From an uncultured Clostridia bacterium (lineage in GTDB: Bacteria; Bacillota; Clostridia; Christensenellales; UBA1242), in NCBI GenBank assembly GCA_945921465.1, contig CAMEKS010000001.1:2745-66744 (forward strand): DNA of 64,000 bases, in the 5' to 3' direction. Position 1 is the first letter of the stretch; each line of letters begins with the position of its first letter. The notes beneath the pieces were generated by a model. The model had not been told where the DNA came from and did no database searches. It saw nothing but the letters and a program-made list of their open reading frames with translations. The position numbers and the translations under genes were made by a program. This document shows, one piece after another, positions 15,405-60,607 of this stretch.

Positions 15405-18400
15405 CTAAATCCACTCTATTTGTAAAACAATATGAAAAGCATATTGTCCGCTATTGTATTCATAAAACTCACCATTGCCGGTGTATAGTACACTTACTGT
15501 ATTATTTAATGCTTCAAATTTGTTTGTAATGGCGGTTCTTTGTGAGGAGGTTGGAGTGGTGCTTGATGCAGAAGATGGGACCATGCTTGCCAGCAATTCT
15601 TTTGTCACCAAAAACTCTATATATGTATATTCCTTTTGCTTAACAATTTGCGATAAATTATTTAATTCTGTAGATGTACTTATTAACAAATCTTGTGTAT
15701 TTGTGGACAAGTCGCCTTGCCAAATTGTTTTATTAAATGCGTTATATGAAGTAGCTGGTGTAGCGTATAGAGAGTATTTGGTGTGGGCGGCATGTTGGAA
15801 GTGCGTCTCGGATACATAATTATCTGTAACCAAGAAATATTCATGTAACAGACATTCATTTTTGCCATTAGAAGTAGTGAGAAAGAACTCTGTCCAAGTA
15901 ATGTCAACCAGATAATAATTATTATCAACACATACTTTATTCCAAGCATGACCGCCTGAACCATTGCCTGTTTTTGCCTCGCCCGATATACGATAACAAT
16001 TGACACCCATCATATTGCATAGGAGCGAATAAGCTTTGCTAAATCCGTCACATACTGCCAGCCCGATGCCACCGTTAGTAGATTGGTCAATGTCTACTAG
16101 GAACACACCCTCTAGATAGAATGAAGGAACGGAGGTAGGGGAGGTCGAGCCTAAGCTGTTGGTGCCGGCGGTGTAATCATAAACTGTGTTAGCAGTAATC
16201 CAATCGAACAAAGTAAGTGCTATCTCATAATTACTCATAGCCGGCGAGATATATTCATTAATTACTTCCTTCGCCTTGTTGTAGACGGCTTCTGCCCGAC
16301 TACCCACTGCGCACACAGGCGTGTATCCGCCCTCTAGTGCCTTGTATAACTCTTCGGTTGTAGTAACTGGAACTTTAATCATTTTGCTATCAGAAACAAA
16401 ATTACTAGTATTGCTTCGCTTGCCATTGGTGGAATAATCGTAAATTGTATAGTAAGCATTATTAATATTATATTGAGAGTAGTGGTTTGGTGATATATTA
16501 TTATCTTCGTATACATCTAGCGTACATTCTGTCCCGCCAACATATGACACATCCATTCGTATGTACCCTTGAGAATATGATATAGTGCATCCGTAATAAC
16601 TTGTCTCTACAAACGAATCATATGCAGTGGCGATTGCAGTTGTGTACTGGCTTTTGTCTATAAAAGCACTATCAATACCTATTTCATATTCTGTTAATCT
16701 GGATATAAAACTATAATATACGAAGTGATTAAGTTCTTCTTGACTTTCGATATAATAGTCCGCCAATATTCCGTCAAATGCAAAGACTTGTGAATATTTA
16801 GTATAAGGTGTTGGATTGTAATAAGAAGGGATTAGGTTAGATGTGTAATATTTGTTAGCAACTTTGCACGCAATCACAATTGCCAATATCTCATTTCCTT
16901 CTAATCCCAACGCAGAGTAAATATCAGAAACGCTAACGTTAGATGTGGTTATCTGTGTCCACGAATAGCCTGCTTTATCGCAGTAAGTGGCCATATATGC
17001 GTTAGATATGCCGTTTGGCAAATCCCAAGTAATTATCCCGTTATTAATAGAATATTGTGCGCCCAATGTAGTGCTAGAATATACCGTGTTATCTAATATA
17101 AGGCTATAATCGCTAGCCGAATTGTCATAGACAATCGTGTTACTGAAGTCGCTATCATTATACAAATCACCGCTTGAATGAGCCAATACTTTGATGCTAT
17201 AATAATTGTTTTCGGTTATATAGTCTAAGATGTTGAAATTGGTGGAAGAGATATAACTGCCGAATAAAGCATTATTTATATAGACGGCGTAACTATCTGC
17301 ATTGTCCACTTCATCCCAACTAACTTCGCCTGTGCCATAATTAATGCTTATTGTAGGAGCAGTTAATGTACCCTTAATAGTAACAGTATATTCCACGCTA
17401 TTGCTAGCAGCGCTATTGATGTAATCTGTGTTTGTGGTTTGAGCAATAATGTATATATTATATGTATTTGCCGCCAAAGAGTAGTTGGACAGATTGATTA
17501 AATATGACTCTTCGGCGGCCTTTATTGTGTCAAGTAATTCGTCGTTGCAATAAATTAGATAATTGCTGGCTTCTGCCACATCGTCCCATGATAACAACGA
17601 GCCGGCAAGTTGAATTGTGGGGGATTGGATAGCTACTGGCGTGTAATTAGTGTCGGTAATAGTAAGTACGCAATTATATATTTTGGTTGGATTGGCGGCA
17701 GAGTTAAGATAGATTTGCTCATAAGTTCCACTATATTCTAATGAATATTCGCAGCCATTTTTGCCAAGTTTCTGCACGAACTCTGCCAATAGGGTGTTAA
17801 AATCACTGTTAGATATTACCGCGGACGACAGATTTAATTGCTCACTTATTAGTTCCTCGGCTATGCTTAAGTATACCTCGTGGTTAAGCATATTAGGGTT
17901 GTAGACGGCAAGTGTGCGATATACATTAATTATATCTTTCATTTCTTGTAATTCATCTGCCAATAATCCCGTCTGATATACCAACACCATATATGTGCCA
18001 TCTTTGGAGTAATCTATGAAGTTAAGCGAACCACCTATAGTATCGTAGTGTTGGGTAATTAGTTGTGGGCCAAACTTAACCGCACGCAATTCTTTTTGCA
18101 ACGCTTCCAAATATGTCTGTGCGTTGTACTTTGCTACTAGCGAATCAAGATAATCAATGTTAATCCTAAATTCAATAAATTCTTTGTCCGCATACACCTG
18201 ATAGTCTAGCACCGCCTTTAGATCGTCAGAATTGTCTACACTAAGGTCGCAGGATATATTGTTAGTGCCATTGGTGTATGTTAGGGTAGTGTGATCATAA
18301 TAATTATATTTGGATACAATAGGGGTGACATATTGATCGAACTTGGTTCTTGTTGCACATTCGATGTGGGAAGAAGATACAGTATATTCGGATATCAAGA

Positions 18401-20036
18401 AATATTTATGAGCCAAGAACTCTGATTTGCCAGCGTTGTCTGCGTCTAATATCTCTGTCCAAGTAATATCTACAAGATATGCGTTGCCGTCTATGACAAC
18501 TTTATTCCAAGCGTGACCGCCTTCGCCCGAAGCGGTCTTGGCGTCACCAGCAATACGGATACAATCTATTCCTTCCATATTGCATAGCAGCGAATATGCT
18601 TTGCTGAAGCCGTCGCACACAGCCACACCCTTAAGGAATACTCCCTCTAGATAATAACTACAATCTTGAGTAAAAACATAATTATTAGGATTATAATCCC
18701 CCGAATAATCATAAACAGTGTTGTAGGTTATCCAGTCGAAAATTGACAATGCTTTCTCGTACGTTGTCATATTAGGGGAGATAATTTTTCTTAAAACTGA
18801 CTTGGCCGCTTCATATATGTCTTCGGCTCTGCTACCGCTGGCAATAATTGGTGTAATATGTCCCTCTACTGCCTGATATAATTCGTCACTAGTTGCCACA
18901 TTTGCGGTTAAGAAATATTTATCTGAAGCAAAATTGTCATATGACAAACTACGCTTGCCATTTGTCGACCAGTCGTACGTTTTGTAATATTCTAACCCAG
19001 TGTCAGAGGTTGGATAAGTGTATCTAGTGTCAACATCTTTGTTAATGTTGCACTCGGTCACCCCGCAGAAATCCATTGCTATAACATATTCGTCAGTACT
19101 GATATTGCTGGCATTTGCCAGTTCTTTGTTGGCGAAAACATAATTAATATACTTTGTCTCGTAGAACGAATCAAAGGAGTCGTTAATGTCATTCTTAATA
19201 CGTCTATCTGAATTAAGCACACCCAACTGAGATACATAATCAGAATCAAATCTAACCGAGTATTCCCCATTTCTTTCGTTAAATTGATAGTACATTACTG
19301 TATTTAATTCATCTTTGCTGTTGATATAGTGGTCATATATTTTGCCGTCAAAGACCACAATATTTTCGGTGTATGTGCCCATATTATCAGGATTGTAATA
19401 ACTTATTCTAGGGGATAGCAGATTAATCTCGGTATCAGAGTCTGAAGTCAGATATCCTACATTCCAAGCAACAATTTCGTGCAGCGGAGTATTTAGGCTG
19501 CTTAGGTCAAAAGATGTAGTTGTAATTAGATTTTCTCTTAAACCAACTGTATTAGAATAAGTAGTTACTACATATTTGTAAGCACTTACTCTAGCAGTCC
19601 AGCTGATTATAGTTCCATCAATTGTGGCAGATGATGCCACGGACGTCGCATAGGTATAGCTATTGGTTCGTGGTGTGTAATCTAATATGACCGAATTGCT
19701 CATATTCCCAACTTTACCCGAATTAGATCTGGCACTGACAGTAAATGTCATATACGATTTGTTTGACAAATACTCCGATATATCGTAAGTAATCAAATCT
19801 TCGGTGGCCGTAGTCGAGCCAATCTCTTGGTTATTTAGATAAATAGAATAGTTGTTGTAATTATCCACCTTGTACCATTGCAGCTGCCCAGCATTGTGGT
19901 CTATATATATAGTTGGAGCCTTCGGCTTAGTCGCAAAAAAATTCAAATCGCAACTGCATCCACCCAACAAGCCCGTAGAGAGGATTATGACTAACATAAT
20001 CATTGGCAAAAATAATTTATGTAAAAATTTTTTCAT
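15405..20036 (-). CDS. Giant lipoprotein with two transglutaminase-like cysteine-protease cores (internal tandem duplication)
   Basis: Signal peptide with lipobox LLGGC. Two copies of AVCDGFSKAYSLLCNM...GGHAWNKV...YLVDITWTE (Cys-His-Asp core), each preceded by similar domains of about 400 aa. N-terminal Ig/Fn3-like modules. RBS AGGAGAAG. Confidence 0.8.
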   Translation of the reverse strand: MKKFLHKLFLPMIMLVIILSTGLLGGCSCDLNFFATKPKAPTIYIDHNAGQLQWYKVDNYNNYSIYLNNQEIGSTTATEDLITYDISEYLSNKSYMTFTVSARSNSGKVGNMSNSVILDYTPRTNSYTYATSVASSATIDGTIISWTARVSAYKYVVTTYSNTVGLRENLITTTSFDLSSLNTPLHEIVAWNVGYLTSDSDTEINLLSPRISYYNPDNMGTYTENIVVFDGKIYDHYINSKDELNTVMYYQFNERNGEYSVRFDSDYVSQLGVLNSDRRIKNDINDSFDSFYETKYINYVFANKELANASNISTDEYVIAMDFCGVTECNINKDVDTRYTYPTSDTGLEYYKTYDWSTNGKRSLSYDNFASDKYFLTANVATSDELYQAVEGHITPIIASGSRAEDIYEAAKSVLRKIISPNMTTYEKALSIFDWITYNTVYDYSGDYNPNNYVFTQDCSYYLEGVFLKGVAVCDGFSKAYSLLCNMEGIDCIRIAGDAKTASGEGGHAWNKVVIDGNAYLVDITWTEILDADNAGKSEFLAHKYFLISEYTVSSSHIECATRTKFDQYVTPIVSKYNYYDHTTLTYTNGTNNISCDLSVDNSDDLKAVLDYQVYADKEFIEFRINIDYLDSLVAKYNAQTYLEALQKELRAVKFGPQLITQHYDTIGGSLNFIDYSKDGTYMVLVYQTGLLADELQEMKDIINVYRTLAVYNPNMLNHEVYLSIAEELISEQLNLSSAVISNSDFNTLLAEFVQKLGKNGCEYSLEYSGTYEQIYLNSAANPTKIYNCVLTITDTNYTPVAIQSPTIQLAGSLLSWDDVAEASNYLIYCNDELLDTIKAAEESYLINLSNYSLAANTYNIYIIAQTTNTDYINSAASNSVEYTVTIKGTLTAPTISINYGTGEVSWDEVDNADSYAVYINNALFGSYISSTNFNILDYITENNYYSIKVLAHSSGDLYNDSDFSNTIVYDNSASDYSLILDNTVYSSTTLGAQYSINNGIITWDLPNGISNAYMATYCDKAGYSWTQITTSNVSVSDIYSALGLEGNEILAIVIACKVANKYYTSNLIPSYYNPTPYTKYSQVFAFDGILADYYIESQEELNHFVYYSFISRLTEYEIGIDSAFIDKSQYTTAIATAYDSFVETSYYGCTISYSQGYIRMDVSYVGGTECTLDVYEDNNISPNHYSQYNINNAYYTIYDYSTNGKRSNTSNFVSDSKMIKVPVTTTEELYKALEGGYTPVCAVGSRAEAVYNKAKEVINEYISPAMSNYEIALTLFDWITANTVYDYTAGTNSLGSTSPTSVPSFYLEGVFLVDIDQSTNGGIGLAVCDGFSKAYSLLCNMMGVNCYRISGEAKTGNGSGGHAWNKVCVDNNYYLVDITWTEFFLTTSNGKNECLLHEYFLVTDNYVSETHFQHAAHTKYSLYATPATSYNAFNKTIWQGDLSTNTQDLLISTSTELNNLSQIVKQKEYTYIEFLVTKELLASMVPSSASSTTPTSSQRTAITNKFEALNNTVSVLYTGNGEFYEYNSGQYAFHIVLQIEWI

Positions 20037-27458: not shown

Positions 27459-30400
27459 CTAGATATTGTTAGATGTAGGGCTCTTGTATCCTTTTTGAGC
27501 ACAAGTTGATGTTACATATCTAGAGTAAATGCTGCTCCAGTTAGCTGGGAAAGTAGCAGTGGAGAATATTGCCCCACTTATTACTCTACCGCAACCGCCT
27601 GCTGCATAGGTAAATACACCTGTGGCAGATATATAACATATAGATGTCAATTTGTTATTAGTTGCTTTGCCACCGTTGAACATAGCACCAATAATTCCAC
27701 CAGCATATGCCTCTGTGGCGTTGTACTTAGAGCATTTTGCTACAATCTCACCAGTTGAATGAGTGTTGTTAGTAATAGTTCCTGACTTATATACCTTACC
27801 AACTACACCACCTGCTAGTGCATTGCACTTGGTATCGGATGTGATAGCAGATATATTGCCACTATTGATGTTAGATTTCACATAACCATCAGTCATCATA
27901 GCAACTATACCAGCGGATTGGTAGTTAGAACTAATAGTTCCTGAGTTAGAGTTGTTCTGAACGGTTCCTATAGTTAAATAACCTACGATACCAGCAGCGT
28001 TGCCGCCATTATTGCTTCCAGATACGCAGCAAGTAATTTTGCCACGATTATTACAATCTTCTACCAATTGTCTAGAGTTGCCATTCATTAAGCCTACGAT
28101 ACCAGCACTGATTACTGTGCCGTGTTCGATAATGTCATACTCGTCTACTGATGTAGATGTGTTATTTATGTTACCAATGTTGTTACAATCTGTGATTGTG
28201 CCTGCCTCGAAGTTTGCCACGATACCAGCGACAAATTGAGTCTTTGCAGTGATATTTGCAGAGTTGTCGCAATTAGTGATTTGGCCATCTTGCATATTAC
28301 CTACGATACCAGCGACACCTATTTTAGCAATTTTGCTGAAATTGATAGTGCCAGATACTTCGCAGTCTGAGATAAAGCCGCAAGATTCGTTAGCAATACC
28401 GCCAAAGTAATTAGAATTGTTCAATGATCTAACTGTAGGGCTGCTATATTTTACGGTCAAGTTGTTAATTGTTGCAGTGTCTGCTACTTGGTCAAACAAT
28501 GCAAAATCATATAATGTGCCTTTAACGATGATTGTATAACCGTTGCCATTGAATGTTCCTGCAAAGTTTTCGCAAGGTAGGAATTTCGATGTAACTGTAA
28601 AGCTGTTGGCTAGCGCAAAGGTTAAATTCTCGTTGTCACCATAGTTGACAACATATTCATTCCAAGAATCTGTGTCGGAGATGATATAGTCACCTTCTAC
28701 ATCAGTGTCAGGAGTGTAATTAGGATTATTATTGTTAGAGTATATTACATATATAGTTAGATTTTCGTTAGGCATCTTGGATGTGTTGTAATAAGGAATG
28801 CCTGTGCCATCTTGGTTAGTTGCAAATCTGATATATGCATAACTGCTATATTGCTTGGTTATTGTGTTGATGTAACTAGCGATGCTTTCACCCTCTGTTA
28901 CAGTAGCAGTTAATTTAGTTTTGCCGGTAGTTGCATCAATAATTGTCAGATTGTGCCTAGTGCTACGGAACCAAATGTCTAGACTAGTATCACCATTGAC
29001 AACATTGTTGTTAGCAACGATTTCTTCATTTATTTCAAATGAGTTGAATTTGTAATTAGAACTAACATTTTCGAAAGTGATTGTATAGAATGCTTTGCCA
29101 TCTAGGTTGTAGATAATTACAGAATTATTAGTGATATTAACCCTAAAGCCTTCAGCGACCCCTAGTGCATAACTTGCACTATTAGTAGAAGCAACTACTT
29201 TGTTATTAGAGTCTTTTACTACAATAGTAGCGATTTTTCGGATAGCATCTTTTTCGTTGATATCTCCTTGAGAGATAACAAATTCGTAAGCATTTACAAT
29301 CTCGAAGTCGGTAGTGATACCGTCTTCGGCATCGTCTTGCATAGTATATGTAAGGGTAGGGAATCCATTGTTAACTGCAGTACTGATATTCCAAACATTG
29401 CCAAAATCCCAATTGCCAGCGATTTCTCTAGTTGCTAACAAATTGCCAGTAGTAGAATATGTTTTAACTACTCTCTTGCCAGGGACGAATGAAGATTGCA
29501 ATCTCATATTGGCAGAAGTTAGCCCTTGTACAAAGCCTGCTTTCTCGGCAGTAGTTACTTCGCTAACAGTTTTGTCGGCCAACATATTTCTGCCTACGCC
29601 AGCAAATCTCTTAACAGTTGCACTCTCAGAAACGTTAAGATTTTCTTTGTTATAATATAGCCCACTTAGGTTATTGGTGTTAGATTCTAGACTGATTTTG
29701 CCATTAGTAACAATCTCTATAGCATCCAAGTTTTGACCAATCACACCACCGATAGTCTCGTTAGCACTTGCGTCAACTTTGGCTGTATATAGATTAATAG
29801 CACTATAACTATTGCAAACTATAGCAGCACTTATCATAGTAGAATTACCTTGGCTAAGAGTGGCGAATTGGTTGTCTCCAACTATTCCACCAAATGTAAT
29901 TTTGCTACCAGCTAGATATACACGACCAATAGCATAAGTGTTGTCGATTTTGCCACCTATATTTTTAGCAGCAATGCCACCGATAATGCCGTTAACGCCA
30001 GTGTATTCATAATTTACGCCTTTGTCAGTTACACTTTCGGTCTGACCAATGATTACATTAGACGAGCATTTGCTTATAGTAGCAATATTGACAGAGTCAA
30101 TACCATTGGTAGAGATATTCTTGCCCACAACACCACCAATTGCGTCAGCAGTAACATTAAGGAATGCGTCTCTAATCTCGATACGCTCTACTAGACCATA
30201 GTTAATCGCAGCAATTGTTCCGAAATTATCAAATTCACCAACTGCATAATAGTTCGCCAACTTTAGATTGTACACTTTGCCATTAGCAGCGATGGTATTA
30301 ATAAGACCACCGTTGCTGAAATCAATAGAAGTGTCAGTAGAATTATTAACAAGATAAGAATCCTTATCTATGTCTATATTAGAGATTGTAAAACCATTGC

Positions 30401-30896
30401 CATCTAGTATGCCACTAAATTCGTTGATAGGTGCCCAGAATCCATTGTTAACATTAGACATATCTAGATTGGCTACCAATTTGTAACAAGCATCAGCAGG
30501 ATATTCATCACTACGACCAATCATAGCCAATTGCTCTGGCTCACTAATGTAATAAGGATTATCTATAGAACCATCGCCAACCAAGACATCGCAGAATAGA
30601 TTACGATATCGGCTATTAGTTGTAGTAAAAGTTACTCTAGCCACACCACCAGCTTTGGCCACAAATAAACCGCTGCTGAAGTCTACTATTGATGTATCGT
30701 TGGTAGAATTAGTTATAGATGTAGTTTTCTTAGGGTTCTTACGTATTACATCAATGCTGAATTCGTCGCCCACATTAACATACATTACCTCTGCGGAAAG
30801 AGAAATAGTCTCTCTGGTAACTACTACAAAAATCATAGATACAGATACTACTATTGCCACAAATACGCTGAAGAATAATACCCAAAACTTTTTCAT
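27459..30896 (-). CDS. Large surface protein: N-terminal signal anchor, Ig-like domain, many GLUG-type repeats and Listeria-Bacteroides (flg_new-like) repeats
   Basis: Repeats of the form xAGIVGxxxxGxIxNCxNxGxI / GGIAAKNIGGKIDN (GLUG-like). The central segments HNLTIIDATTGK...IRFATNQDGTGIPYYNTSKMPNENLTIYVIYS resemble flg_new repeats. Start at Met9 (MKKFWVLFF) behind GGAGGAAA. Confidence 0.75.
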   Translation of the reverse strand: MKKFWVLFFSVFVAIVVSVSMIFVVVTRETISLSAEVMYVNVGDEFSIDVIRKNPKKTTSITNSTNDTSIVDFSSGLFVAKAGGVARVTFTTTNSRYRNLFCDVLVGDGSIDNPYYISEPEQLAMIGRSDEYPADACYKLVANLDMSNVNNGFWAPINEFSGILDGNGFTISNIDIDKDSYLVNNSTDTSIDFSNGGLINTIAANGKVYNLKLANYYAVGEFDNFGTIAAINYGLVERIEIRDAFLNVTADAIGGVVGKNISTNGIDSVNIATISKCSSNVIIGQTESVTDKGVNYEYTGVNGIIGGIAAKNIGGKIDNTYAIGRVYLAGSKITFGGIVGDNQFATLSQGNSTMISAAIVCNSYSAINLYTAKVDASANETIGGVIGQNLDAIEIVTNGKISLESNTNNLSGLYYNKENLNVSESATVKRFAGVGRNMLADKTVSEVTTAEKAGFVQGLTSANMRLQSSFVPGKRVVKTYSTTGNLLATREIAGNWDFGNVWNISTAVNNGFPTLTYTMQDDAEDGITTDFEIVNAYEFVISQGDINEKDAIRKIATIVVKDSNNKVVASTNSASYALGVAEGFRVNITNNSVIIYNLDGKAFYTITFENVSSNYKFNSFEINEEIVANNNVVNGDTSLDIWFRSTRHNLTIIDATTGKTKLTATVTEGESIASYINTITKQYSSYAYIRFATNQDGTGIPYYNTSKMPNENLTIYVIYSNNNNPNYTPDTDVEGDYIISDTDSWNEYVVNYGDNENLTFALANSFTVTSKFLPCENFAGTFNGNGYTIIVKGTLYDFALFDQVADTATINNLTVKYSSPTVRSLNNSNYFGGIANESCGFISDCEVSGTINFSKIAKIGVAGIVGNMQDGQITNCDNSANITAKTQFVAGIVANFEAGTITDCNNIGNINNTSTSVDEYDIIEHGTVISAGIVGLMNGNSRQLVEDCNNRGKITCCVSGSNNGGNAAGIVGYLTIGTVQNNSNSGTISSNYQSAGIVAMMTDGYVKSNINSGNISAITSDTKCNALAGGVVGKVYKSGTITNNTHSTGEIVAKCSKYNATEAYAGGIIGAMFNGGKATNNKLTSICYISATGVFTYAAGGCGRVISGAIFSTATFPANWSSIYSRYVTSTCAQKGYKSPTSNNI

Positions 30897-30990
30897 AAAT
30901 TTTCCTCCATTTCTCAACAAAACTTAATTTATTTTCAAAAACAGCATTATTTCTCTTGACAAAATTTATATTTTTATATAAACTTACCCT

Positions 30991-36880: not shown

Positions 36881-39800
36881 ATGTCAACTGCTACTATTGT
36901 TAATATTGCTTTGACGGGAGTTGTTGGGCTATTTGTGCTAGTGGGTGCCATTGTAGGTGCCGTTAGAGGTGTTAAGAAAACACTAGTGCGAGGTGTATGG
37001 CTAGGAATATGGACGGTCATATTGGTGTTGTTTCTATCCGGAATAATAACCAACCTAATAATGAATATTAAGTTTACTGCCAATGTTGGTGGCGTAGAAT
37101 GTACCGGAATCAAAGAAATAGTTACAGAACTAATAATGGCTAGTGGGGTAGATATGTCTAGCTTGGGTGAAAATGCGGATGCTGTTATCCAGGTTATTGT
37201 GGGCTATACAGACATAATACTAAATTCGGTTGTGTTTGTACTGTTATTCTGGTTACTAAAGTGGCTGCTGTTACCTATCAATGCATTAATTTATCGTGTA
37301 CTTCCTTGGGGTAAGGCGGAGCGAAAATATAAAAAAGAAAAGAAAGCGTATGATAAGTATGTAAAGGAATATAAGAAATTACACAAGGGCGAAATCCCAG
37401 TCGAGGCAATGGGATTTGCCGACCTTAGCGATGATGAGAAGATACTTGCTGGAAAAATAAGTGAGATTAAGCAGAAGACGGCTTTGGATAGCCTAAGAGA
37501 AGCAAGGGCGTCGATAGAAAATAACGAAAAAATTATTAAGAACGAGAAGTTGGGGCTAGATATCGACAAGTCGGCTGTGGTGCAAGAAAACATCAAGGAA
37601 GAAAATAATAAAACTGAAGAAACCTTTATACCAAAAGAAGAGTATCAGCCAAAACAAGAAGAAGTAGTAGACTTGACTCCGGTAACAAAACCAAAAAAAT
37701 TAAAAAAACATAGACTGCTGGGTATGTTGGTTGGTGGCGTAATGGGAATATTCATTGGTGCTATTACTTTGTCACCTGCCTTGGGCATATTATCTCTAGC
37801 AAATGACATCAACTCTAATAACGAGATAGAATTAGAGGACGGGACCAAGAAGGGCTTGGTGGATTATCTGACTCAAGATATGTTCAGCCAAATCAATGAA
37901 TATTATGAAGATTCTATAGGCTCTAAGGCCCTTACATATACCGGCGGAGAGTGGGTGGCTACGGCCACTTTTGGGGCATTGACTCGTGGAAAAGTAGATG
38001 GACAAGTTGCAGATCTTGCCGAGGATGCTAAGAATATAGTAGCGATAGCGTCATTGGTTAATACGATAACCGACCAAGTCAAGGAATTAGAAGAGAGCAA
38101 TTATCAGCCCGATGTTTTACGAAAAATAATTAAAAATATAGACAAGATTATAGATTATGCATTTAATATTAGCGTAGTCAACGTGTTAGCACCATATACT
38201 ATGCAGATTCTGGCCGACGAGATAGAAAAAACAGCGAACGACAACACGACTGCTTTGGCAGAAAATGAGAATTCTACTGAGGCAAATGACGATATTAATA
38301 AAATATTGGTCAAGTTCGCCCAAACTGTAGCGACATTTGAAGACGCAAGTACAATTAAGAGCGAATTAAAATCTTTTATTAAGATAGTAGAGATGCTTAA
38401 TTATGGTGTAAATATCAATACAATCGATGGCGTTAGATCAACATCATTGCTGTCCGAAATATTGAAGTCTAGCGACAATTCCAAGAATTCAGAAGTGACC
38501 AGAACTATTCAAAAATTGAATTACGAATATTATACAACCAACCAAAAGATGTACTTTACCTCATTAATAGAGAAGTGTTATAGCGTAGATGGTTACGAGA
38601 CTAAGGCTGTGCCAGAGGTTATGCCAATGGGCATAGAAGTGGTGCTTAAGGCTTTGCTGCAAGAAGCAGGAGTGACCAATGCGGGTGAAATATTAGCAGG
38701 CGATTCTAAAGAAACTGTAAAAAATTTCTTGATGTCAACATTTAACGAAGTATTTGCGGTTCTGCTAGAACTTAATACTGGCTACGATGCTAATAACAAT
38801 ATGGTGTATATAGAGTATGAGACCGAAGACGACTGGGGCAACATTACATTGGGCAAGATTAGCAAAAATATGTTTACATCTTTGGGTAAAATACTTGACA
38901 ACATCGCTGGATTGGTTAATGAAGAAGTGTACAAAGATGCTATTGCATCAGTTGCAAAGAACCTTAATAATATAGCAACCGAAGGGCTGAAAGAAATGAT
39001 GGGCGAAGATCCTGCGTCTAAGGTCGGCGCTAATCTTGAATCAGCGCTTAATGCTTTGACCGGCGAAGGTGCGTTCGCCAAAGAATTGACTGCAGTTGGC
39101 GAAGTATATCAAACAATCTTTAACAACAATGGACTATTTAAGGGCGAATTTGCACTCAACGACAAAGACAATTGGCAATGGCAAATTAATAATCTTTCGG
39201 CACTTGGCAACGCATTAGATGCTTTACAAGAGACAACTCTTTTGGGATATGTCAATACAGGAGACAAATACAACACCATTAATATTATATTCACCGCAAT
39301 GCTAGATAAGGTTAAAACTGATATGGTTGACACAAATAGTTTATCGCTAGATTTGAACGGATACATTGAGTCTCCTTCAGTTATGGAGCATGCTGTATAT
39401 AATATTATCAATCTAATAAATTATAACATTTCTAATCAATGTATCAACGGCAAAGTTGATTGGAGTAACACATTTGATAAGTGCGCCAAGGCTATAGGTG
39501 TGATTACTGACATAATTAATGCCGAAAAAACAGACGATGTTGACTCTATAGATATGGTGTTAGAAATCTTAGGCAAGCATACCTCTATCGAGCTGGATGG
39601 AAATGCCAATGAAGTAATCAAGGGTGCCTTAGATGAGATTAATATTACTAGTAACACAATCTTCACTGGATTGGTTAGTCGCGTGTTGACCGACTTCAGA
39701 TCGGTGTTAAATTCGCAAATCTCAGCAGCAGATAATAAGCAGGTAAATACAATTATTAATGCATTGTTTGATACATTGTCAGGGGTTGGCACTAGTACAA

Positions 39801-41881
39801 AACCAAGGAACACTTATCAGTATCACCTTAATACACTAAAAGAAGTTTATGATTATATTACTAACGAAGAATACGGACTTGGTGGATTAGATAACATCGA
39901 ATTCGATACCAAAGATTTGGGTAAGTTGGGAGAATTGTTAAATATTATAACCAAAAGCAATTCTAACGAAACCGATGCAATTCCGCTAGTAAGCAATAGC
40001 ACTATTTGTGAAATTATTGCAGACATTATGCAAGAACAATTAATTGATGGAAGCAACGGAATAGAGTCTATGATATCCGACTCAGATATTAGCGGTGCTA
40101 TGAAAGATTTTGTAACAACATTAATTGCTAATATACGCAATAGCGTTCCATTCAGATACACCCCAACCAACGGATGGGTAGGCGTAACAGAGGCATTGAG
40201 TTATATTATTAACAATTGTCTAGATGGCGGTAATATAGATTTTGCTGATACAGATGCCACATCTACCATAATTGGCAAAATGATGGATGTGCTATCTGGC
40301 AAGGACTTTGTGATAGGAACTGGGGCAGATGCCAAGACTTATAACGCTAAGTTTGTAGAGCCAAAAGATGTCAAACTGCTGTTGGGTAAAATTATTGCTA
40401 AGAAGATGTCTAATATGTCAATTGATGCAAAAATCAAAGATGCTATAATGGGAGCAACATTTAGCTTAGCCAGTGATACAACATACAATATCTATGCCAA
40501 GGCAATTAATCTATATGTTTATGGCGAAGCTGAGACAACTAAGGACATATTTAACGACAATAAGGTGTCACTTGTCAATGTCGAAGGCCAGACATATACT
40601 CTTAACGGAATATGTGATAAAATATTCAATTTTAACAACAACGCCTATAGTTGGGAAGTTGCGTTAAAGACGCTGCTTAATTTAACCAATACAAACTTTG
40701 CAAGTGCAGGTTTGGGCAACTTTAGTAATATTAATCACACTTATTATAGTGCAGATACTGTCGAAATCAGCGGATTTGGAGAAACATTAGATAATATATT
40801 AATCAATCAATGGGAAATGGCAGAGAGTGTCAACATTATCACTTTGGATCAAATCAAATATATAATGAGTTCGACGATTGCAAATGAATTAGAAGATGTA
40901 ACTGACACTGATGTTAGGGGTGCTCTTGATACAATCGTTAACAACATCAACAAAATTACAGAATCAGAAGTTAAGGCTACACTTAAGACGGTCGCCAATG
41001 ATTGGACCGGTGCGTATTTCGATACTCAGACTAAGGCAATGCAATATGCAATAGATATCCTTAATGGCTACACTAGCGCAACCGACCAAGACGCATATAT
41101 TGCAGACTTGGGAGTATATCTAGACGAAATAGATAAGGTTGTTTTAACTAATGGGTTAGGCAAGACATTTACTATCACCATTCTTAATAAAATAGGCAAT
41201 GACGAAGATTCTGATAGTATTGCAACTACCATTAACACAGCAGTGGCCAAGTTGCGAGGCGAAGAAAGTGTTACAAAAGTATTCTTGCAAAACAATAATG
41301 ACAGAGTTAACAATTTGTATAATGGCAAAAATAACGAAGAAGTATACGCTTTGTTAAGCGAATTGAAGAGCACATTAAATGGAATTACATTCAGTAATTT
41401 TGAATTAACGTTGGGTGGAGAAACTACCATCTCTTCTGATAAATACAATGAAATGCGTAACAATTTGGTGAACATTTCTATAACTATTCAGCAGTTGCAA
41501 AGCAACCCAATAGTTGGTGCAAAAGATGCTAGATATATAGCAATTGCAGTAATAAATAAGTTGGTTACTAGTATGGACAATTTGATTACTTCAGTTAACT
41601 ATTCTAATAATGTCAATAGAGCATATGGGCACAAAACTGGAACAACAGCAGATGGATATAAGCAATATTTGATTGATAGAATAGCGGTGACTGATGAGGA
41701 AGAAGAATATGCGACACTAGTCGCAGGCTCTACTACTGATTATGAAGTGCCATATTATGTTGATAATAATGGTGATTCTAATGTAGAAACTGCAGAATAT
41801 GCTTATCTATATCAAACTCAAAAGTATATAATAGTCTACTTATTAGATGATTATTATAATTTAATAACAAAATCAAATTAA
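36881..41881 (+). CDS. Giant (1666 aa) membrane protein: CvpA-like N-terminal TM region, K/E-rich coiled segment, another TM helix, then about 1350 aa of helical sequence of unknown function
   Basis: N-terminal helices (IVNIALTGVVGLFVLVGAIVGAV..., WLGIWTVILVLFLSGII..., VVFVLLFWLLKWLLLP), a charged segment at residues 150-270, and a TM helix LLGMLVGGVMGIFIGAITL. The rest has no motif I recognise. Confidence 0.7.
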   Translation: MSTATIVNIALTGVVGLFVLVGAIVGAVRGVKKTLVRGVWLGIWTVILVLFLSGIITNLIMNIKFTANVGGVECTGIKEIVTELIMASGVDMSSLGENADAVIQVIVGYTDIILNSVVFVLLFWLLKWLLLPINALIYRVLPWGKAERKYKKEKKAYDKYVKEYKKLHKGEIPVEAMGFADLSDDEKILAGKISEIKQKTALDSLREARASIENNEKIIKNEKLGLDIDKSAVVQENIKEENNKTEETFIPKEEYQPKQEEVVDLTPVTKPKKLKKHRLLGMLVGGVMGIFIGAITLSPALGILSLANDINSNNEIELEDGTKKGLVDYLTQDMFSQINEYYEDSIGSKALTYTGGEWVATATFGALTRGKVDGQVADLAEDAKNIVAIASLVNTITDQVKELEESNYQPDVLRKIIKNIDKIIDYAFNISVVNVLAPYTMQILADEIEKTANDNTTALAENENSTEANDDINKILVKFAQTVATFEDASTIKSELKSFIKIVEMLNYGVNINTIDGVRSTSLLSEILKSSDNSKNSEVTRTIQKLNYEYYTTNQKMYFTSLIEKCYSVDGYETKAVPEVMPMGIEVVLKALLQEAGVTNAGEILAGDSKETVKNFLMSTFNEVFAVLLELNTGYDANNNMVYIEYETEDDWGNITLGKISKNMFTSLGKILDNIAGLVNEEVYKDAIASVAKNLNNIATEGLKEMMGEDPASKVGANLESALNALTGEGAFAKELTAVGEVYQTIFNNNGLFKGEFALNDKDNWQWQINNLSALGNALDALQETTLLGYVNTGDKYNTINIIFTAMLDKVKTDMVDTNSLSLDLNGYIESPSVMEHAVYNIINLINYNISNQCINGKVDWSNTFDKCAKAIGVITDIINAEKTDDVDSIDMVLEILGKHTSIELDGNANEVIKGALDEINITSNTIFTGLVSRVLTDFRSVLNSQISAADNKQVNTIINALFDTLSGVGTSTKPRNTYQYHLNTLKEVYDYITNEEYGLGGLDNIEFDTKDLGKLGELLNIITKSNSNETDAIPLVSNSTICEIIADIMQEQLIDGSNGIESMISDSDISGAMKDFVTTLIANIRNSVPFRYTPTNGWVGVTEALSYIINNCLDGGNIDFADTDATSTIIGKMMDVLSGKDFVIGTGADAKTYNAKFVEPKDVKLLLGKIIAKKMSNMSIDAKIKDAIMGATFSLASDTTYNIYAKAINLYVYGEAETTKDIFNDNKVSLVNVEGQTYTLNGICDKIFNFNNNAYSWEVALKTLLNLTNTNFASAGLGNFSNINHTYYSADTVEISGFGETLDNILINQWEMAESVNIITLDQIKYIMSSTIANELEDVTDTDVRGALDTIVNNINKITESEVKATLKTVANDWTGAYFDTQTKAMQYAIDILNGYTSATDQDAYIADLGVYLDEIDKVVLTNGLGKTFTITILNKIGNDEDSDSIATTINTAVAKLRGEESVTKVFLQNNNDRVNNLYNGKNNEEVYALLSELKSTLNGITFSNFELTLGGETTISSDKYNEMRNNLVNISITIQQLQSNPIVGAKDARYIAIAVINKLVTSMDNLITSVNYSNNVNRAYGHKTGTTADGYKQYLIDRIAVTDEEEEYATLVAGSTTDYEVPYYVDNNGDSNVETAEYAYLYQTQKYIIVYLLDDYYNLITKSN

Positions 41882-52955: not shown

Positions 52956-52988
52956 ATTAACATAATTTTGCAACATTTGCGAGGAAAT

Positions 52989-54659
52989 ATGTGGGATAAT
53001 ATTGTACCAGATAATTTTATAGAAGAAGAGATACTAAAAGATTTGAAATCGGGAAGAGCCAAAGAGGTGATTACTCGTTGTCCGCCAGAGCCAAGTGGCT
53101 ATTGGCATATTGGTCATTGCAAAGCATGGATAATAGATTTTGAGACGGCGAAGAAGTTCGGTGGATATACTAATTTGCGTATGGACGACACCAACCCTAC
53201 CAAAGAGGATGGTGACTTTGCGAACTCTTATGTTAATGACTTAGAATGGCTAGGATATACGCCTAAGAATGTAATCTATGCTAGCGAAGCATATTTTGAA
53301 GATATATATAAAATTGCCGAAGATATGATACGTGACGGCAAAGCATATGTATGTGAATTGTCGGCAGAAGAGGTGTCTCAGACCAGGGGTACATTGTCGG
53401 AGCCTGGTATCGAGAGCCCATATAGGAACCGAAGCGTAGAAGAGAATTTGAAGTTGTTTCACGATATGCGAGATGGCAAGTTTGAAGATGGAAAGGCGAC
53501 ACTTCGTGCCAAGATAGATATGGCTCATCCTAATATGAATATTAGAGACCCTGTGATGTATCGGGTAATGAGAGCAACTCACTACAAGACGGGCGACAAG
53601 TGGTGCATCTATCCTATGTATGATTTTGCTCATCCTATGGAGGATGCTCTTGAGGGTGTGACTTATAGTCTATGCGATATCAGTTTTGAGGATCATAGGC
53701 CTCTATATGACTGGTTTATTGCAAATGGTTGGAAAGGTGAATATCCTCCTAGGCAGATTGAATTTTCTAAACTTAATTTAGAGAATGTTTTACTAGGCAA
53801 GAGATATCTTAAGAAGTTAGTTAACGAAGGCAAGGTAATGGGTTGGGATGACCCAAGATATTTAACAATTGTTGGGATGCGTAGGCGTGGTTATACAGCA
53901 GAGGCAATCAAGGAATTTATTAAGTCTTTGGGTTTGTCGAAATGTGATAGCACCATTCCATTCAATGCTCTAGAATATTATATTCGTGCCGACCTTAATA
54001 TGAAGGCGACTCGTGCAATGGCTGTGCTTGATCCTCTAAAGGTTGTAATAACCAATTATAGTGGAAGCGAAGAAATAGAAATTGCAAATAATCCTAATGT
54101 TGAGAATGCGGGCTCACATACTTCGCGATTCTCTAATACTATATATATTGATGCCGATGATTTCTCACTTAACCCTCCTCCAAAATACAATAGATTGGTG
54201 CGAGGTGGAATGGTTAGATTGAAAGGTGCATACATTATTCGTTGTAATGATGTTGTATACAAAGACGATGGCTCTATTGATCATTTGGTTTGTGAATATT
54301 TACCTAACACCAAGAGTGGAAACGACACTAGCGGAATTAAGGTTAAGGGAACAATACATTTTGTTTCACAAGACAACTGCACCGAAGTCACTATTCGAAA
54401 TTTCAAGAATTTAATCAAAGATGAGTATTTAGACCCAAGCAAAGCGTTGGCAGATGGTGTAGATGTAGATGAACTGCTTACCCCAGACTCGCTAACTGAA
54501 ACAACAGCGTTGGTAGAGAATTATTTGCTAAGTGCTAAACCTGAAGATAAATTTCAATTTATGCGCAAAGGTTATTATACACTAGACAAAGATTCAACTG
54601 CAGATCACTTAATATTTAATAACACTATTTCTCTAAAAGACGGATACAAGCCTCAATAA
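52989..54659 (+). CDS. glnS: Glutamine--tRNA ligase
   Basis: Class I HIGH motif (PEPSGYWHIGHCKA), GlnRS-type catalytic and beta-barrel anticodon-binding domains, and typical length. ATG 52989 follows GAGGAAAT (the track ORF starts at an upstream TTG). Confidence 0.9.
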   Translation: MWDNIVPDNFIEEEILKDLKSGRAKEVITRCPPEPSGYWHIGHCKAWIIDFETAKKFGGYTNLRMDDTNPTKEDGDFANSYVNDLEWLGYTPKNVIYASEAYFEDIYKIAEDMIRDGKAYVCELSAEEVSQTRGTLSEPGIESPYRNRSVEENLKLFHDMRDGKFEDGKATLRAKIDMAHPNMNIRDPVMYRVMRATHYKTGDKWCIYPMYDFAHPMEDALEGVTYSLCDISFEDHRPLYDWFIANGWKGEYPPRQIEFSKLNLENVLLGKRYLKKLVNEGKVMGWDDPRYLTIVGMRRRGYTAEAIKEFIKSLGLSKCDSTIPFNALEYYIRADLNMKATRAMAVLDPLKVVITNYSGSEEIEIANNPNVENAGSHTSRFSNTIYIDADDFSLNPPPKYNRLVRGGMVRLKGAYIIRCNDVVYKDDGSIDHLVCEYLPNTKSGNDTSGIKVKGTIHFVSQDNCTEVTIRNFKNLIKDEYLDPSKALADGVDVDELLTPDSLTETTALVENYLLSAKPEDKFQFMRKGYYTLDKDSTADHLIFNNTISLKDGYKPQ

Positions 54660-54752
54660 CATTTTTGGATAAATATGGCATAGTATGTAGTGTATTGTGT
54701 GCACAGTAACCTGTTATTAGTGGCGAGGTCAAAAACTTGTCAGTTTAGAAAA

Positions 54753-54790
54753 ATATCAGACATAGGCAATTCCTGTGTCTGATATTTTTG
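54753..54790 (+). terminator. Rho-independent terminator after glnS
   Basis: ATATCAGACATAGG-caatt-CCTGTGTCTGATAT followed by a T-run. Confidence 0.8.
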
Positions 54791-54991
54791 TATTAATTGT
54801 GGTTAATTGTATTTTTTAATCTGATTATAATTGATTAGCGAATTATCCGAGATATTGTGAATAAATATTAATTCGTAGAAGATAAATCAAAAGAATTAAA
54901 ATGCTGGTTAGTGGTAAAAAGTATACATTAAGATGTAATTATGACAGTAGATTATGCAGTAAATGGTGGCTTTTTGGCAAATAATCAGCAG

Positions 54992-55207
54992 TTATCCACA
55001 ATTTCACAAGTTTTGTTTATTAATTTTTTTGAATTATTATGCAAAAATTAAAAATTTGAAAAATTTTTGTGAAAAAATGTCGAAAATCACCAAAGTTATC
55101 CACTTATCCACCACTTATCCCCGAGTTATCCACAGCCAATGTTCGTAAAATGTTTTATAACGACGTGTTTTTATGTCACAAAGATGTGTTTTGAATAGTT
55201 ATCCACA
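54992..55207 (+). promoter_or_regulatory. DnaA-box cluster with AT-rich spacer (candidate oriC segment or DnaA-titrating cluster)
   Basis: TTATCCACA at 54992-55000, 55126-55134 and 55199-55207. TTATCCACT 55096-55104, TTATCCACC 55104-55112 and TTATCCCCG 55115-55123. All are on the same strand. 55001-55095 is AT-rich with reiterated GAAAAAT-type motifs. Confidence 0.75.
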
Positions 55208-55223
55208 TAGTTGTACACAAGTT

Positions 55224-56699
55224 TTATGGACATACATATGTTGGGATTGTGTCAAATAAGAAATCCGTACCCATATTTAGTGTGGCAGTTTCGTCATCTA
55301 TTATTGGAATATCTGGGATATTGTCTTCTACGCCTTCGATCACAATACCCGCTTGTGGCTGATATATTTCGTGTCGTATTTCTTTGCGGTCTATTACCTC
55401 ACCATTGCGAGAGGTAATAAGATATGATTTGACATCAAATCCTCCTCTAGGGTAGGTTAATCTATAAGTCTCGCCCTTAAACAAAACCTTGTCTGTATAT
55501 TCCTTATTCACGTCTGGAACTATTCGATCAGGCAGTGGTGATAAGGTGGCTAATGTTTCGCTCTCTGTGCTGTATTCTACGTCTAGTGGGTAAGAGTATA
55601 TCTCTACAGTAACGTCATCTGCAGTGCTGCTGGTTTTGATAAATATTGGGTGCTCAGATGTGTTAGTAAATTTTAGGTCTGAAGCGCCGGATACCATTGC
55701 ATCTAGGGCTAGAGGTACATATCTAACTGGGAGCGTGTGCTTATGAACTTCGTCTATTTGTATGCCAGATAGCAGTAGTGCATTGTATAGGGTGGTGCTG
55801 GCTTGGCACACACCTCCGCCAATTCCGTCAACAAACCTGCCATTTTGTATAATTGTAGCGATTTGATATCCATTATCTAGTGTATGTGGCGAGGTGACTT
55901 CGTTAAAAGAAACTGACTGGTTTGGTTCTATTCTCATTCCGTTAAATTTGGATAGTGCTAATTTTACATTGTTTTTTCTTCCACCAGTACTGTCACCGAC
56001 CGATGTGGAGAATTTGGCGATTCTATTGGTTAATGATTGATTGTATTCTTCACTAATTTTAGGTTCGGCATCTTCTAGCTCTAGTTCAATCAATATGTTA
56101 TTAGTTATAGCAAATTGCTTATTGATATTGCTATACAATTTGTCCCTATTTATTACTTTTCCACTAGCAGAAGGCGTAATCTGCCACATATTTGCCTCTG
56201 TCGGTGAAAATGTAATGGTAGAATCTATGGCAGGTGTCTCTATGGACTGACATATTTCTTCTATCTTTTGGTCTAGACCTTGAAAAATATAGTTAAATGC
56301 AATAGTTGTGGAACCGTCGGAAGTTGAGATTAATCCCATAGACTCTAACTTAGAAGCATAGTCGCTGTTAGAATCAGATAATTCTAATATAGATCTAACA
56401 TCAGGATTGATAGTGTAATCATCTTGGTCTATGATAAATATTTGGTCGCCTTTTTTTAGCGTCAGACTGAAGTTGTTGGCTTTGTCTGCAATGTATGACG
56501 ATACTTTTTCATATGCTTCGGCGCTAGTAATTCCTTTTAGATTAATTCCATTAATTTGGGTGTTGAATTCGCTTGAGTACGTATTGCGAAAAACATTGAG
56601 TTTGCATAGTAATATTATTAATACAACTGCTATAGCAATTATTAGTGTAGTTATAATCATCCAAAATGTTCGTGATTTTTTGCTCTTTGATGTAGACAT
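55224..56699 (-). CDS. VanW-family protein with N-terminal TM anchor
   Basis: TM helix FWMIITTLIIAIAVVLIILL and the VanW core GIGGGVCQASTTLYNALLLSG. Confidence 0.8.
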   Translation of the reverse strand: MSTSKSKKSRTFWMIITTLIIAIAVVLIILLCKLNVFRNTYSSEFNTQINGINLKGITSAEAYEKVSSYIADKANNFSLTLKKGDQIFIIDQDDYTINPDVRSILELSDSNSDYASKLESMGLISTSDGSTTIAFNYIFQGLDQKIEEICQSIETPAIDSTITFSPTEANMWQITPSASGKVINRDKLYSNINKQFAITNNILIELELEDAEPKISEEYNQSLTNRIAKFSTSVGDSTGGRKNNVKLALSKFNGMRIEPNQSVSFNEVTSPHTLDNGYQIATIIQNGRFVDGIGGGVCQASTTLYNALLLSGIQIDEVHKHTLPVRYVPLALDAMVSGASDLKFTNTSEHPIFIKTSSTADDVTVEIYSYPLDVEYSTESETLATLSPLPDRIVPDVNKEYTDKVLFKGETYRLTYPRGGFDVKSYLITSRNGEVIDRKEIRHEIYQPQAGIVIEGVEDNIPDIPIIDDETATLNMGTDFLFDTIPTYVCP

Positions 56700-59214: not shown

Positions 59215-59898
59215 ATGTTATATATTATATTAGGGGTAATAATCTTATACTGCATAATTTTTGTGGTATCTATATTTAATTCTAATGATACACTCCAAAA
59301 ATTATATGCTAAGTATGTGAATATTCCCAATAACAAAAATTGGCAAGGAATGAATGTGGCTTTTGACGCCAGAAGATATTTTGGATTAGATGTAAAAGTG
59401 GCTATGCGCAAAGGAATAATGACTGATGCGTATAGCATTAAGGATAGAATAATAATCATTAGCGAGGATGTCTGTTATAACAATTCGATTGCGGCAGCGG
59501 CCATTGTGGCACACGAGGTCGGACACGCTGTACAGCACAAGAATAAATCCTTATTATTAGGACTTGTTAGATTTACCACTAAGTTTTGCGATATATTTTG
59601 TCGATTTGTTTTGCCTTTGTTATTGGCTGGTGCAATATTGCGACTAGCCGAAATTAATGTGGAGGTTGGCAATATATTATTAATAATTGCATTATCTCTA
59701 TGTGGGTTGAATATTATAGACAACTTCTTAAATATTCCATTAGAGAGTGGTGCTAGTAGAATAGGTTTTCGCTATCTAAAAGATAATAAAATTATATCTA
59801 AAAAAGATTATGGCAAAGTTAAGAGATTATTGAGTGTAGCAAGTAAAACATATATGGCACATTGGCTAAGAACATTGTTGCCAATTAGGAGGAAGTGA
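59215..59898 (+). CDS. Membrane zinc metallopeptidase (YugP-like family), paralog 1
   Basis: HEVGHAVQH zinc motif flanked by TM helices. RBS AAGGGGAAG. Confidence 0.8.
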   Translation: MLYIILGVIILYCIIFVVSIFNSNDTLQKLYAKYVNIPNNKNWQGMNVAFDARRYFGLDVKVAMRKGIMTDAYSIKDRIIIISEDVCYNNSIAAAAIVAHEVGHAVQHKNKSLLLGLVRFTTKFCDIFCRFVLPLLLAGAILRLAEINVEVGNILLIIALSLCGLNIIDNFLNIPLESGASRIGFRYLKDNKIISKKDYGKVKRLLSVASKTYMAHWLRTLLPIRRK

Positions 59899-59899
59899 T

Positions 59900-60607
59900 A
59901 TGATAGAATACTATGCAGCGTTGGTTGTATTTGTGCTTGCGTTGATTATAGGAACGTATGCCAATATCAAGGTTAGTACATGTTATAACAAATATTCTAA
60001 GGATGTGGCACAATCGGGGATTGTCGCTAGTGTGTTGGCAAGGCAATTGCTAGATGCATCGAATTTGAATGATATAAAAATTGCGAGAGTGTCTGGCAAT
60101 ATGACAGACTACTACGACCCACGCAAGAAAGTAATTGCGTTATCTGAGGGCGTATATGATAGTGGCTCAATTGCTGCACTTGGCATAACCGCACACGAGT
60201 TTGGGCATGCTTTGCAATACAAAGACGGCAATGCCCTTGTGAAATTAAGGAATATTCTCGTACCAATTTCTAATTTGATGTCTACGTTGGTTTGGCCAAT
60301 GCTAATAATTGGTGTATTACTAGATTTTGTATGGTTCTCTGAATCAACAATTGGACTTATTTTCATAATGGTGGCTGTAGGGGCATTTGCATTAAGTACA
60401 TTACTTAGTCTGATTACTCTGCCAATAGAGAGAGATGCCAGTAGGCGAGCGGTTAGGGTGTTGGAGCAAACGGGTACATTGACCGAAGAAGAGCTGGTTG
60501 GTGCCAAAGCGATACTAAGTGCCGCAGGTCTAACATATGTGGCGGGGCTGTTGTCGTCGGTTGCAAACTTGCTAAGGATATTGGCAATATTTGGCAGAAA
60601 CAAATAG
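59900..60607 (+). CDS. Membrane zinc metallopeptidase (YugP-like family), paralog 2
   Basis: HEFGHALQY zinc motif with the same architecture as the upstream paralog. RBS AGGAGG. The ATG lies 1 nt after the upstream stop. Confidence 0.8.
   Translation: MIEYYAALVVFVLALIIGTYANIKVSTCYNKYSKDVAQSGIVASVLARQLLDASNLNDIKIARVSGNMTDYYDPRKKVIALSEGVYDSGSIAALGITAHEFGHALQYKDGNALVKLRNILVPISNLMSTLVWPMLIIGVLLDFVWFSESTIGLIFIMVAVGAFALSTLLSLITLPIERDASRRAVRVLEQTGTLTEEELVGAKAILSAAGLTYVAGLLSSVANLLRILAIFGRNK

Follow-up and report, generated by a model that had tools for sequence, protein, structure and literature searches.

A conserved cluster of co-oriented DnaA boxes with a predicted bend beside VanW-family genes of uncultured Bacillota-like bacteria

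Control of the pool of active DnaA protein is little known outside E. coli and its relatives. B. subtilis has six clusters of DnaA boxes (DBCs) lying outside oriC and their combined deletion leads to early initiation; a structural rule for how they affect initiation was not found, and the authors of that study expected such clusters to be common in Bacillota (PMC3245932). A restraint on initiation, through DnaA that they would bind or inactivate, has been put forward as the role of the DBCs (PMC3245932, PMC4447404), in an organism without datA, DARS, Hda and IHF (PMC13220808). In the minimal datA of E. coli the boxes point in the same direction, their intervals are optimised, and boxes 2 and 3 have a bend site between them; the bend induced by IHF joins bound DnaA molecules and in this way stimulates ATP hydrolysis (PMC5742627). 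The present analysis concerns a cluster of DnaA boxes at 54992-55207 in a 64,000-nucleotide stretch of DNA (the window) from an uncultured Clostridia bacterium, whose genome is Bacillota-like and has ~35% G+C. With moderate confidence we read it as a conserved DnaA-box cluster outside the origin, which would act as a negative regulator of initiation by sequestering DnaA, possibly combined with inactivation. Non-origin clusters of DnaA boxes are already known; what is new is the locus in an uncultured clade, the rigid architecture kept across deep divergence, and the predicted intrinsic bend.

The cluster (216 bp, non-coding) contains five DnaA boxes with at most one mismatch, all on the + strand and three of them perfect. 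A sequence-only reading of the same DNA had listed these as three perfect boxes and two one-mismatch boxes overlapping by one T, and both coordinates and strand were confirmed. It counted six boxes in all. Five are real and conserved; the sixth is present with two mismatches and is not conserved, since outside the window it is seen only in the closest relative (L083), in degenerate form, and not in the other loci. The list also missed a degenerate box, B1', which is conserved. The parts of the cluster are as follows, the 12 loci being those compared below.

54990-55000, + strand: box 1 (B1), an AG prefix and a perfect TTATCCACA at 54992; perfect and preceded by AG in 12 of 12 loci
55000-55008, + strand: box 1' (B1'), a degenerate DnaA box AATTTCACA with a one-base overlap with B1
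55096-55112, + strand: boxes 2 and 3 (B2, B3), TTATCCACTTATCCACC; consensus in the alignment AAGTTATCCACTTATCCAC
55115-55123, + strand: weak sixth box TTATCCCCG, two mismatches, outside the conserved element
55126-55134, + strand: box 4 (B4), perfect TTATCCACA, 22 bp past B3
55135-55198, no strand: spacer between B4 and B5, 64 bp, weakly conserved (tTCgA.AAa..tT), 63-65 bp in the 11 sequences examined
55199-55207, + strand: box 5 (B5), perfect TTATCCACA, 73 bp past B4 and 16 bp from the stop codon of a VanW-family gene

B2 is TTATCCACT at 55096 and B3 is TTATCCACC at 55104, with one T common to both, and the B1/B1' pair has the same 8-bp register.

In this AT-rich genome boxes with one mismatch are frequent (31 in the whole window against 24 expected), and the cluster might be regarded as box-like words that have piled up by chance in intergenic DNA rich in A+T. 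First-order Markov simulations of 64 kb, 400 in number, gave no more than three boxes with at most one mismatch and two perfect boxes, against five and three observed, so that the observed density was not reached in any simulation. A Poisson estimate for this density is ~1e-9 per 216-bp window, and ~1.4 Mb of DNA from unrelated glnS loci contains no more than three boxes in any 300-bp window; by all these measures the box density is above background. The recurrence of five boxes at matching spacings in 12 independent lineages refutes chance, to which we attach practically no weight. It should be mentioned that the window has a fourth perfect box at 15001 (+), isolated and within the addA coding region, 14 bp from the inverted one-mismatch box TTATCAACA (15015, -; the two span 15001-15023). 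This pair is probably due to chance.

The related loci were obtained through orthologues of the VanW-family gene next to B5, using one scan of metagenome contigs and one protein search, after which the encoding contigs were fetched. L082 was the sole locus returned by the VanW probe in the metagenome contigs and gave the first sign of conservation. The set consists of 12 species-level loci: the window, L082, L083, L084 (with L085, a second contig encoding the same protein), L086-L092 and L094. The related loci come from distantly related, uncultured, Bacillota-like metagenome-assembled genomes (MAGs) of the gut/rumen type. The element is present in all 12, at VanW identities of 47-75%, and lies directly 3' of the VanW orthologue in 11; in L091 one gene intervenes. 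With an nhmmer profile of the element each locus gives a single full-length match (E 1e-39 to 1e-47), and 1.65 Mb of other DNA gives nothing comparable.

The sequence-only reading had suggested a DnaA-titrating cluster resembling datA or the DBCs as one possibility, and this is the one favoured here; it gains strength from the order, orientation and spacing of the boxes, which are strictly kept in all 12 loci. Order and strand relative to vanW are constant. Measured from start to start, B5 and B4 are 73-74 bp apart, B4 and B3 22 bp, B3 and B2 8 bp, and B2 and B1 104-107 bp (96 bp in L090); the spacings are thus fixed within 1-3 bp, apart from the single 10-bp change in L090. The anatomy of the element was taken from column conservation in an 11-sequence MAFFT alignment, in which the conserved form of B1 is aAGTTATCCACA, that of B4 ttATCCACA and that of B5 AGTTATCCACA. 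B1' keeps the consensus '.TT.CACA' and reads ATATGCACA, with two mismatches, in L089 and L090. B4 is found at its constant distance from B3, perfect or with one mismatch, in 10 of the 11 related loci, and L092 has no recognisable box at this position. B5 is perfect in most loci and reads TTATGCACA in L087, L089, L090 and L094. The element DNA as a whole is only 51-81% identical to the window copy yet the boxes are nearly invariant, and this invariance reflects selection on them.

The VanW gene is the one consistently linked gene. On the B1 side the neighbour is a convergent glnS in the window and L083, NfeD-Band7 in L084, L086 and L088, and adh_short-aspS-asnS in L087, L089 and L090, and L082, L092 and L094 have other genes; DUF1256 is also among the genes seen at this position. 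In L091, where one gene separates vanW from the element, a convergent gene lies beyond it. With this variable B1 side and the intervening gene in L091 the conservation is not explained by one regulated neighbour. A glnS probe returned 80 loci, all ~50% identical, and none of them carries the box cluster. The glnS gene of the window itself is 51-53% identical to its best match among 185,579 species representatives, and an identical stretch is found in the MAG contig GCA_019973165.1 JAIFIH010001161.1. Long contigs with the element are JBANSA010266877.1 (673 kb, with the element at about 268,000), JAZTWI010000013.1 (221 kb) and CAYBJB010000017.1 (218 kb).

The spacings fit the helix. The three boxes that carry the AG prefix, B1, B2 and B5 (conserved as AGTTATCCACA), are spaced by ~104 bp, roughly ten helical turns, and B2 and B4 are 30 bp apart, about three turns. 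The exceptional locus L090 (11658-11762) can be compared with its close relative L089 (6538-6652), where B1 and B2 are 106 bp apart from start to start instead of 96. The deletion is 10 bp, about one helical turn, so that the phasing of the boxes is kept.

Between B1 and B2 the sequence-only reading had noted a 95-bp AT-rich stretch with reiterated (G)AAAAAT motifs. The stretch is there, with 82% A+T, and falls into two parts.

55013-55040, no strand: conserved AT-rich block, 28 bp, TTGTTTATTAATTTTTTTGAATTATTAT; family consensus T.TTTATaAATTTTT.TGAAT.tTTAT
55041-55095, no strand: variable half of the spacer, in which the sequence varies and helically phased A/T tracts are kept; predicted curvature peak

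In some relatives the conserved block reads as ~10-bp repeats of TTTAT[A/G]AAT. The periodicity of A/T tracts in the B1-B2 spacer is strongest at 10-10.5 bp. Its summed power is 19.8, compared with 2.0 for shuffled sequences, and is at most 6.2 at any period outside a peak of 9.5-10.5 bp. A wedge model of DNA curvature predicts 95.7 degrees per 63 bp at 55065, and no other position of the 64-kb window reaches this value (99.9th percentile 89.6). In each of the 11 other loci only 0-0.26% of positions rank as high as the cluster peak, which falls within the B1-B2 spacer in 10 of them.

The earlier proposal for this stretch was that of an unwinding element. Nearest-neighbour stability does not bear this out, since it is unexceptional for this AT-rich genome: the least stable windows of 27-100 bp in the spacer come no higher than the top 1.3-5%, and lower stability is found at a dozen intergenic sites. 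The spacer is better explained as an intrinsically curved linker. A small protein or an RNA was considered for the element and rejected: no open reading frame (ORF) over the element is conserved across the loci, and Rfam has no family there, the only match being a chance one to c-di-GMP-I-UAU, whose 20.7 bits are well below the threshold of 65.9.

The favoured reading, a DnaA-sequestering cluster, hypothesizes a cis-acting DNA element of ~220 bp on which DnaA would assemble in a defined geometry. From the established specificity of DnaA for its box we infer high-affinity binding to the perfect consensus boxes. Co-orientation and whole-turn spacing would place the strong boxes on one face of the helix, and B1 and B2 each have an overlapping partner box in the 8-bp register. 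The curved 95-bp spacer would fold DnaA at B1/B1' onto DnaA at B2-B3-B4, and the fold would stabilise a looped, head-to-tail DnaA oligomer. Such a complex would keep DnaA away from oriC and perhaps also stimulate hydrolysis of the bound ATP. With DnaA held or inactivated re-initiation would be restrained, as with the B. subtilis DBCs and E. coli datA, and the built-in bend would take the place of the IHF site of datA.

Like the B. subtilis DBCs the element consists of intergenic boxes of the high-affinity type, outside oriC, in a Bacillota-type genome. It has no homology to them in sequence or position and has other neighbouring genes; its box number, orientation, spacing and curved spacer are kept down to a VanW identity of ~47-50%. 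The function of the B. subtilis DBCs has been tested, whereas the element described here is known from its sequence. Compared with E. coli datA it is about as compact (minimal datA 183-262 bp, here ~216 bp), and in both the essential boxes are co-oriented with constrained orientations and intervals. The two belong to different phyla and have no sequence homology, and whereas IHF bends datA at a site specific for it, the phased A/T tracts of the element predict a bend intrinsic to the DNA: none of the 12 elements has an exact IHF consensus WATCAANNNNTTR, nor is a one-mismatch site conserved among them. The E. coli loci DARS1 and DARS2 are also small non-coding clusters, with a three-box core at fixed spacing that may be compared to B2, B3 and B4. 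In DARS, however, box I is inverted relative to boxes II and III (PMC5742627), while all the conserved boxes here are co-oriented.

A bolder version would make the element a Clostridia-type functional counterpart of datA, a catalytic locus which inactivates (or, less likely, reactivates) DnaA and forms its loop by intrinsic curvature rather than by IHF. We offer this tentatively and consider it possible but doubtful. If true, it would be the first sequence-defined, deeply conserved DnaA-regulatory locus in Bacillota, and would supply the defined architecture that work on the B. subtilis DBCs could not find. Should it prove to do no more than titrate DnaA, the element would be a well-defined but ordinary case of a class already known. 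Its strict rule, five co-oriented boxes with whole-turn spacings, two overlapped pairs and a curved 95-bp linker throughout a broad uncultured clade, offers in any case a concrete 220-bp substrate for biochemistry and a searchable signature for comparable loci in Bacillota.

Several points weigh against a DnaA-sequestering element. What is said on DnaA binding, on looping and on a negative effect on initiation is in each case inferred from the DNA sequence. Only two of the six B. subtilis DBCs clearly regulate initiation, with no structural feature to distinguish them (PMC3245932), so a cluster of boxes alone is no guarantee of initiation control. None of the contigs read includes dnaA, and an origin-proximal position, on which the dosage logic of a titration site depends, is plausible from gene content. 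The predicted curvature depends on the wedge angles of Bolshoy et al. 1991; the phasing result is independent of them. Curvature alone, finally, leaves the conservation of the 28-bp AT-rich block unaccounted for, and another protein might bind this block or the DNA might melt there.

The last point leads to the origin itself. The cluster might be oriC, or a functional auxiliary origin or unwinding module, in which B1/B1' would be a pair of the type found in the basal unwinding system (BUS) and the AT-rich block would be melted. A consensus box is followed by a weaker box, with a conserved T-rich/AT-rich block ~11 bp past B1, and B1/B1' with this block resembles the layout of a BUS (PMC8287927, PMC10721633). 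The element shares with the BUS of oriC closely spaced tandem boxes of one orientation (B1/B1', B2/B3), in which the consensus box lies upstream, and has AT-rich DNA beside B1/B1'. The BUS, however, requires a DnaA-trio array beside the boxes (PMC8287927, PMC10721633), and the element shows no clear array of 3'-GAT-5' or 3'-AAT-5' trios; its AT-rich DNA shows a periodicity of 10 bp, not 3 bp. Under a permissive definition, three or more NAN triplets no further than 16 bp from a box, such triplets follow B1 in 12 of 12 loci, but they are also seen in 63% of random windows of AT-rich DNA. Under the strict definition [CT]T[AT], the runs that follow the boxes comprise 0-3 triplets. As controls, the oriC2 of C. 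difficile (sequence from PMC7561715) has strict runs of six, and so has a microvirus with a matching double box.

This microvirus (L095, 599-740; PQ006958.1, bajarodmic virus 735, Microviridae; ~3864-4005 of the record) deserves a remark of its own. In the intergenic region after the replication-initiator gene of this 4.4-kb single-stranded DNA phage there are four packed, co-oriented DnaA boxes (AAGTTATCCACATAATCCACAAGTTATCCACAAGTTATCCACA), followed ~40 bp further by AAGTTATCCACTTATCCACA-CACC-(TTA)x6 and then by AT-rich DNA. Judged by its sequence features, this is a textbook BUS layout, with tandem boxes, a short GC spacer and six 3'-AAT-5' trios. We know of no description of a BUS-type layout in this phage. 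A literature search for the double-box string, which the phage shares with the element, returned an unrelated match only.

The window has dnaX-ybaB-recR and metG-tatD-rsmA as neighbours of the element, genes which in Bacillus-type genomes lie close to the origin, and this speaks for an origin. The gene content matches origin-proximal regions of Bacillota also in L087 (tilS, spoIIE, yabPQ), and from gene content it is plausible that the surrounding genes are origin-proximal. In Bacillota oriC is usually linked to dnaA and dnaN. Neither of these is found in the 55 kb left of the element, in the 12 kb on its right or in any 10-kb flank of the related loci. The sequence-only reading had found no dnaA in the window, and indeed no DnaA domain is present among the 36 window ORFs scanned against Pfam, which are all the long, mutually non-overlapping ones. 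The sole Bac_DnaA matches in the related flanks are 310-residue loader proteins of the DnaI/IstB type.

The GC skew was also at variance with an origin at this site. Leading strands were assigned from the skew at third codon positions (GC3 skew) over 10-55 kb of flanking sequence; seven related loci have informative genes on both sides, and three others lack such genes on one side. In the window the + genes have a GC3 skew of +0.11 to the left of the cluster and +0.20 to the right, the - genes -0.22 and -0.20, and the cumulative skew rises through the site. The pattern is equal on both flanks also in the seven related loci. An origin would invert it, and the unchanged pattern, with no switch of leading and lagging strand at the cluster, speaks against oriC. 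In the window group TTATCCACA is on the inferred leading strand, in L087, L089 and L090 on the complementary strand, so that the orientation of the element relative to fork movement is not conserved between the lineages. In these three loci the element has on either side a run of several consecutive genes that share one orientation. A parS site, sought in the window as a marker of an origin domain, was not found. Thus the skew, the lack of a clear trio array and an unremarkable duplex stability all speak against the suggestion of a dnaA-unlinked oriC; the element is probably not oriC, and the origin or unwinding-module explanation as a whole seems to us very improbable. A plasmid origin was likewise rejected, as nothing in PLSDB resembles this DNA.

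By GC3 skew the + strand is leading across 1-64000, yet only ~45% of the coding DNA is on this strand, and dnaX-ybaB-recR and metG-tatD-rsmA are on the lagging strand. Such a weak gene-strand bias is unusual for a Bacillota-type genome; the closest relatives, L084, L086 and L088, are likewise close to 50:50.

The cluster lies within a 564-bp gap that separates two convergent genes. The features on its flanks are:

52968-54659, + strand: glnS (Pfam tRNA-synt_1c), a variable neighbour outside the element
54749-54789, no strand assigned (+ strand in the terminator scan): terminator hairpin with an 18-pair stem, preceded by an A-run and followed by a T-run
55224-56699, - strand: VanW/G5-domain gene (Pfam VanW, 5e-43), with its 3' end facing B5

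The hairpin is the terminator of glnS, apparently acts in both directions and bounds the non-coding region on the left; between it and B1 there are ~200 bp without a gene (54790-54990). The flanking genes are as the sequence-only reading had them, glnS on + and a VanW-family gene on -. Their convergence is correct and has a precedent, as the gcp-ydiF DBC of B. subtilis is downstream of both its neighbours, i.e., between convergent genes (PMC4447404, Table 1).

This setting bears on the idea that the cluster is mainly a transcriptional element, at which bound DnaA would repress or activate a promoter within it or next to it, or block read-through from vanW into the next gene. DnaA is a transcription factor at several B. 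subtilis DBCs, among them sda, ywlC and yydA (PMC3245932, PMC4447404). In most loci B5 is 16-25 bp past the VanW stop codon, which leaves no space for a terminator, and vanW transcription therefore probably enters the cluster. On the other side, just left of B1, the - strand has a promoter-like TTGCCA-18-CATAAT (54980-54951), with TTGACA there in L084, and a B2.B3-N12-B4 module is found directly upstream of a consensus TTGACA-17-TATAAT promoter in a viral contig. However, inspection of the alignment on either spacer showed no -35/-10 pair conserved across the 12 loci, and the gene beyond B1 differs or is convergent (window, L083, L091, L094), so that there is no common target. A terminator precedes the cluster in L091 and L092 and follows it in L084; with its position relative to the cluster not conserved, a common role as 3'-untranslated region or in read-through was rejected. 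A transcriptional role would also leave the ~104-bp spacing of three boxes and the curved 95-bp spacer unexplained, and we find it rather unlikely, though worth keeping in mind.

Two observations touch on transcription nearby and elsewhere. A short leftward transcript from the promoter-like site, ending at the 54749-54789 hairpin, is possible, and in L084, L086 and L088 it is the NfeD-Band7 operon that lies in the direction of this site. In the viral contig (L093, 9940-10011; IMGVR_UViG_3300037067_003513) the triple-box module AAGTTATCCACTTATCCACA-N12-AGTTATCCACA is 6 bp upstream of TTGACA-17-TATAAT, within a 1.7-kb stretch without an ORF of at least 100 amino acids; from its sequence it looks like a DnaA-controlled phage promoter.

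A further explanation places the cluster outside initiation control as another DnaA-dependent landmark, which would, for example, recruit DnaD/DnaB-type proteins, anchor chromosome organisation in the origin domain or serve a sporulation-linked checkpoint. Organisation of chromosome domains has been raised as a possible role of DBCs (PMC3245932). The B1-B2 spacer contains a perfect Spo0A-box-like heptamer TGTCGAA at 55078-55084, and the two closest relatives which keep it have TGNCGAA (TGCCGAA in L083, TGGCGAA in L088); L084 has one mismatch, and the motif is not present in deeper lineages. In one sub-lineage a helicase-loader-like pair of genes, DnaB_2 (DnaD/DnaB-like) and IstB/Bac_DnaA (DnaI-like), lies 4.5-7 kb from the element (L087, 18694-21122; L089, 11134-13495; L090, 16245-18633), but the window group has no such neighbours. 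The window has no parS site, nothing in the sequence points specifically to any of these roles, and we judge a landmark of this kind to be unlikely.

The other genes of the window are addB-addA, glyS, dnaX-ybaB-recR, tex, rsmA-tatD-metG, one tRNA-Gln and a group with mini-RNase III, rlmB and a sigma factor. Three large ORFs are found at 27459-30920, 36881-41881 and 15405-20036; the window ORFs of 1153 and 1666 amino acids have no Pfam match, and one of 1543 amino acids has a transglutaminase core only. A 1561-residue counterpart of the latter lies near the element in L094. A putative neutral zinc metallopeptidase (Zn_peptidase_2) is encoded at 59215-60607 by two paralogues in tandem, a pair that is kept beside the VanW gene in L084, L086 and L088.

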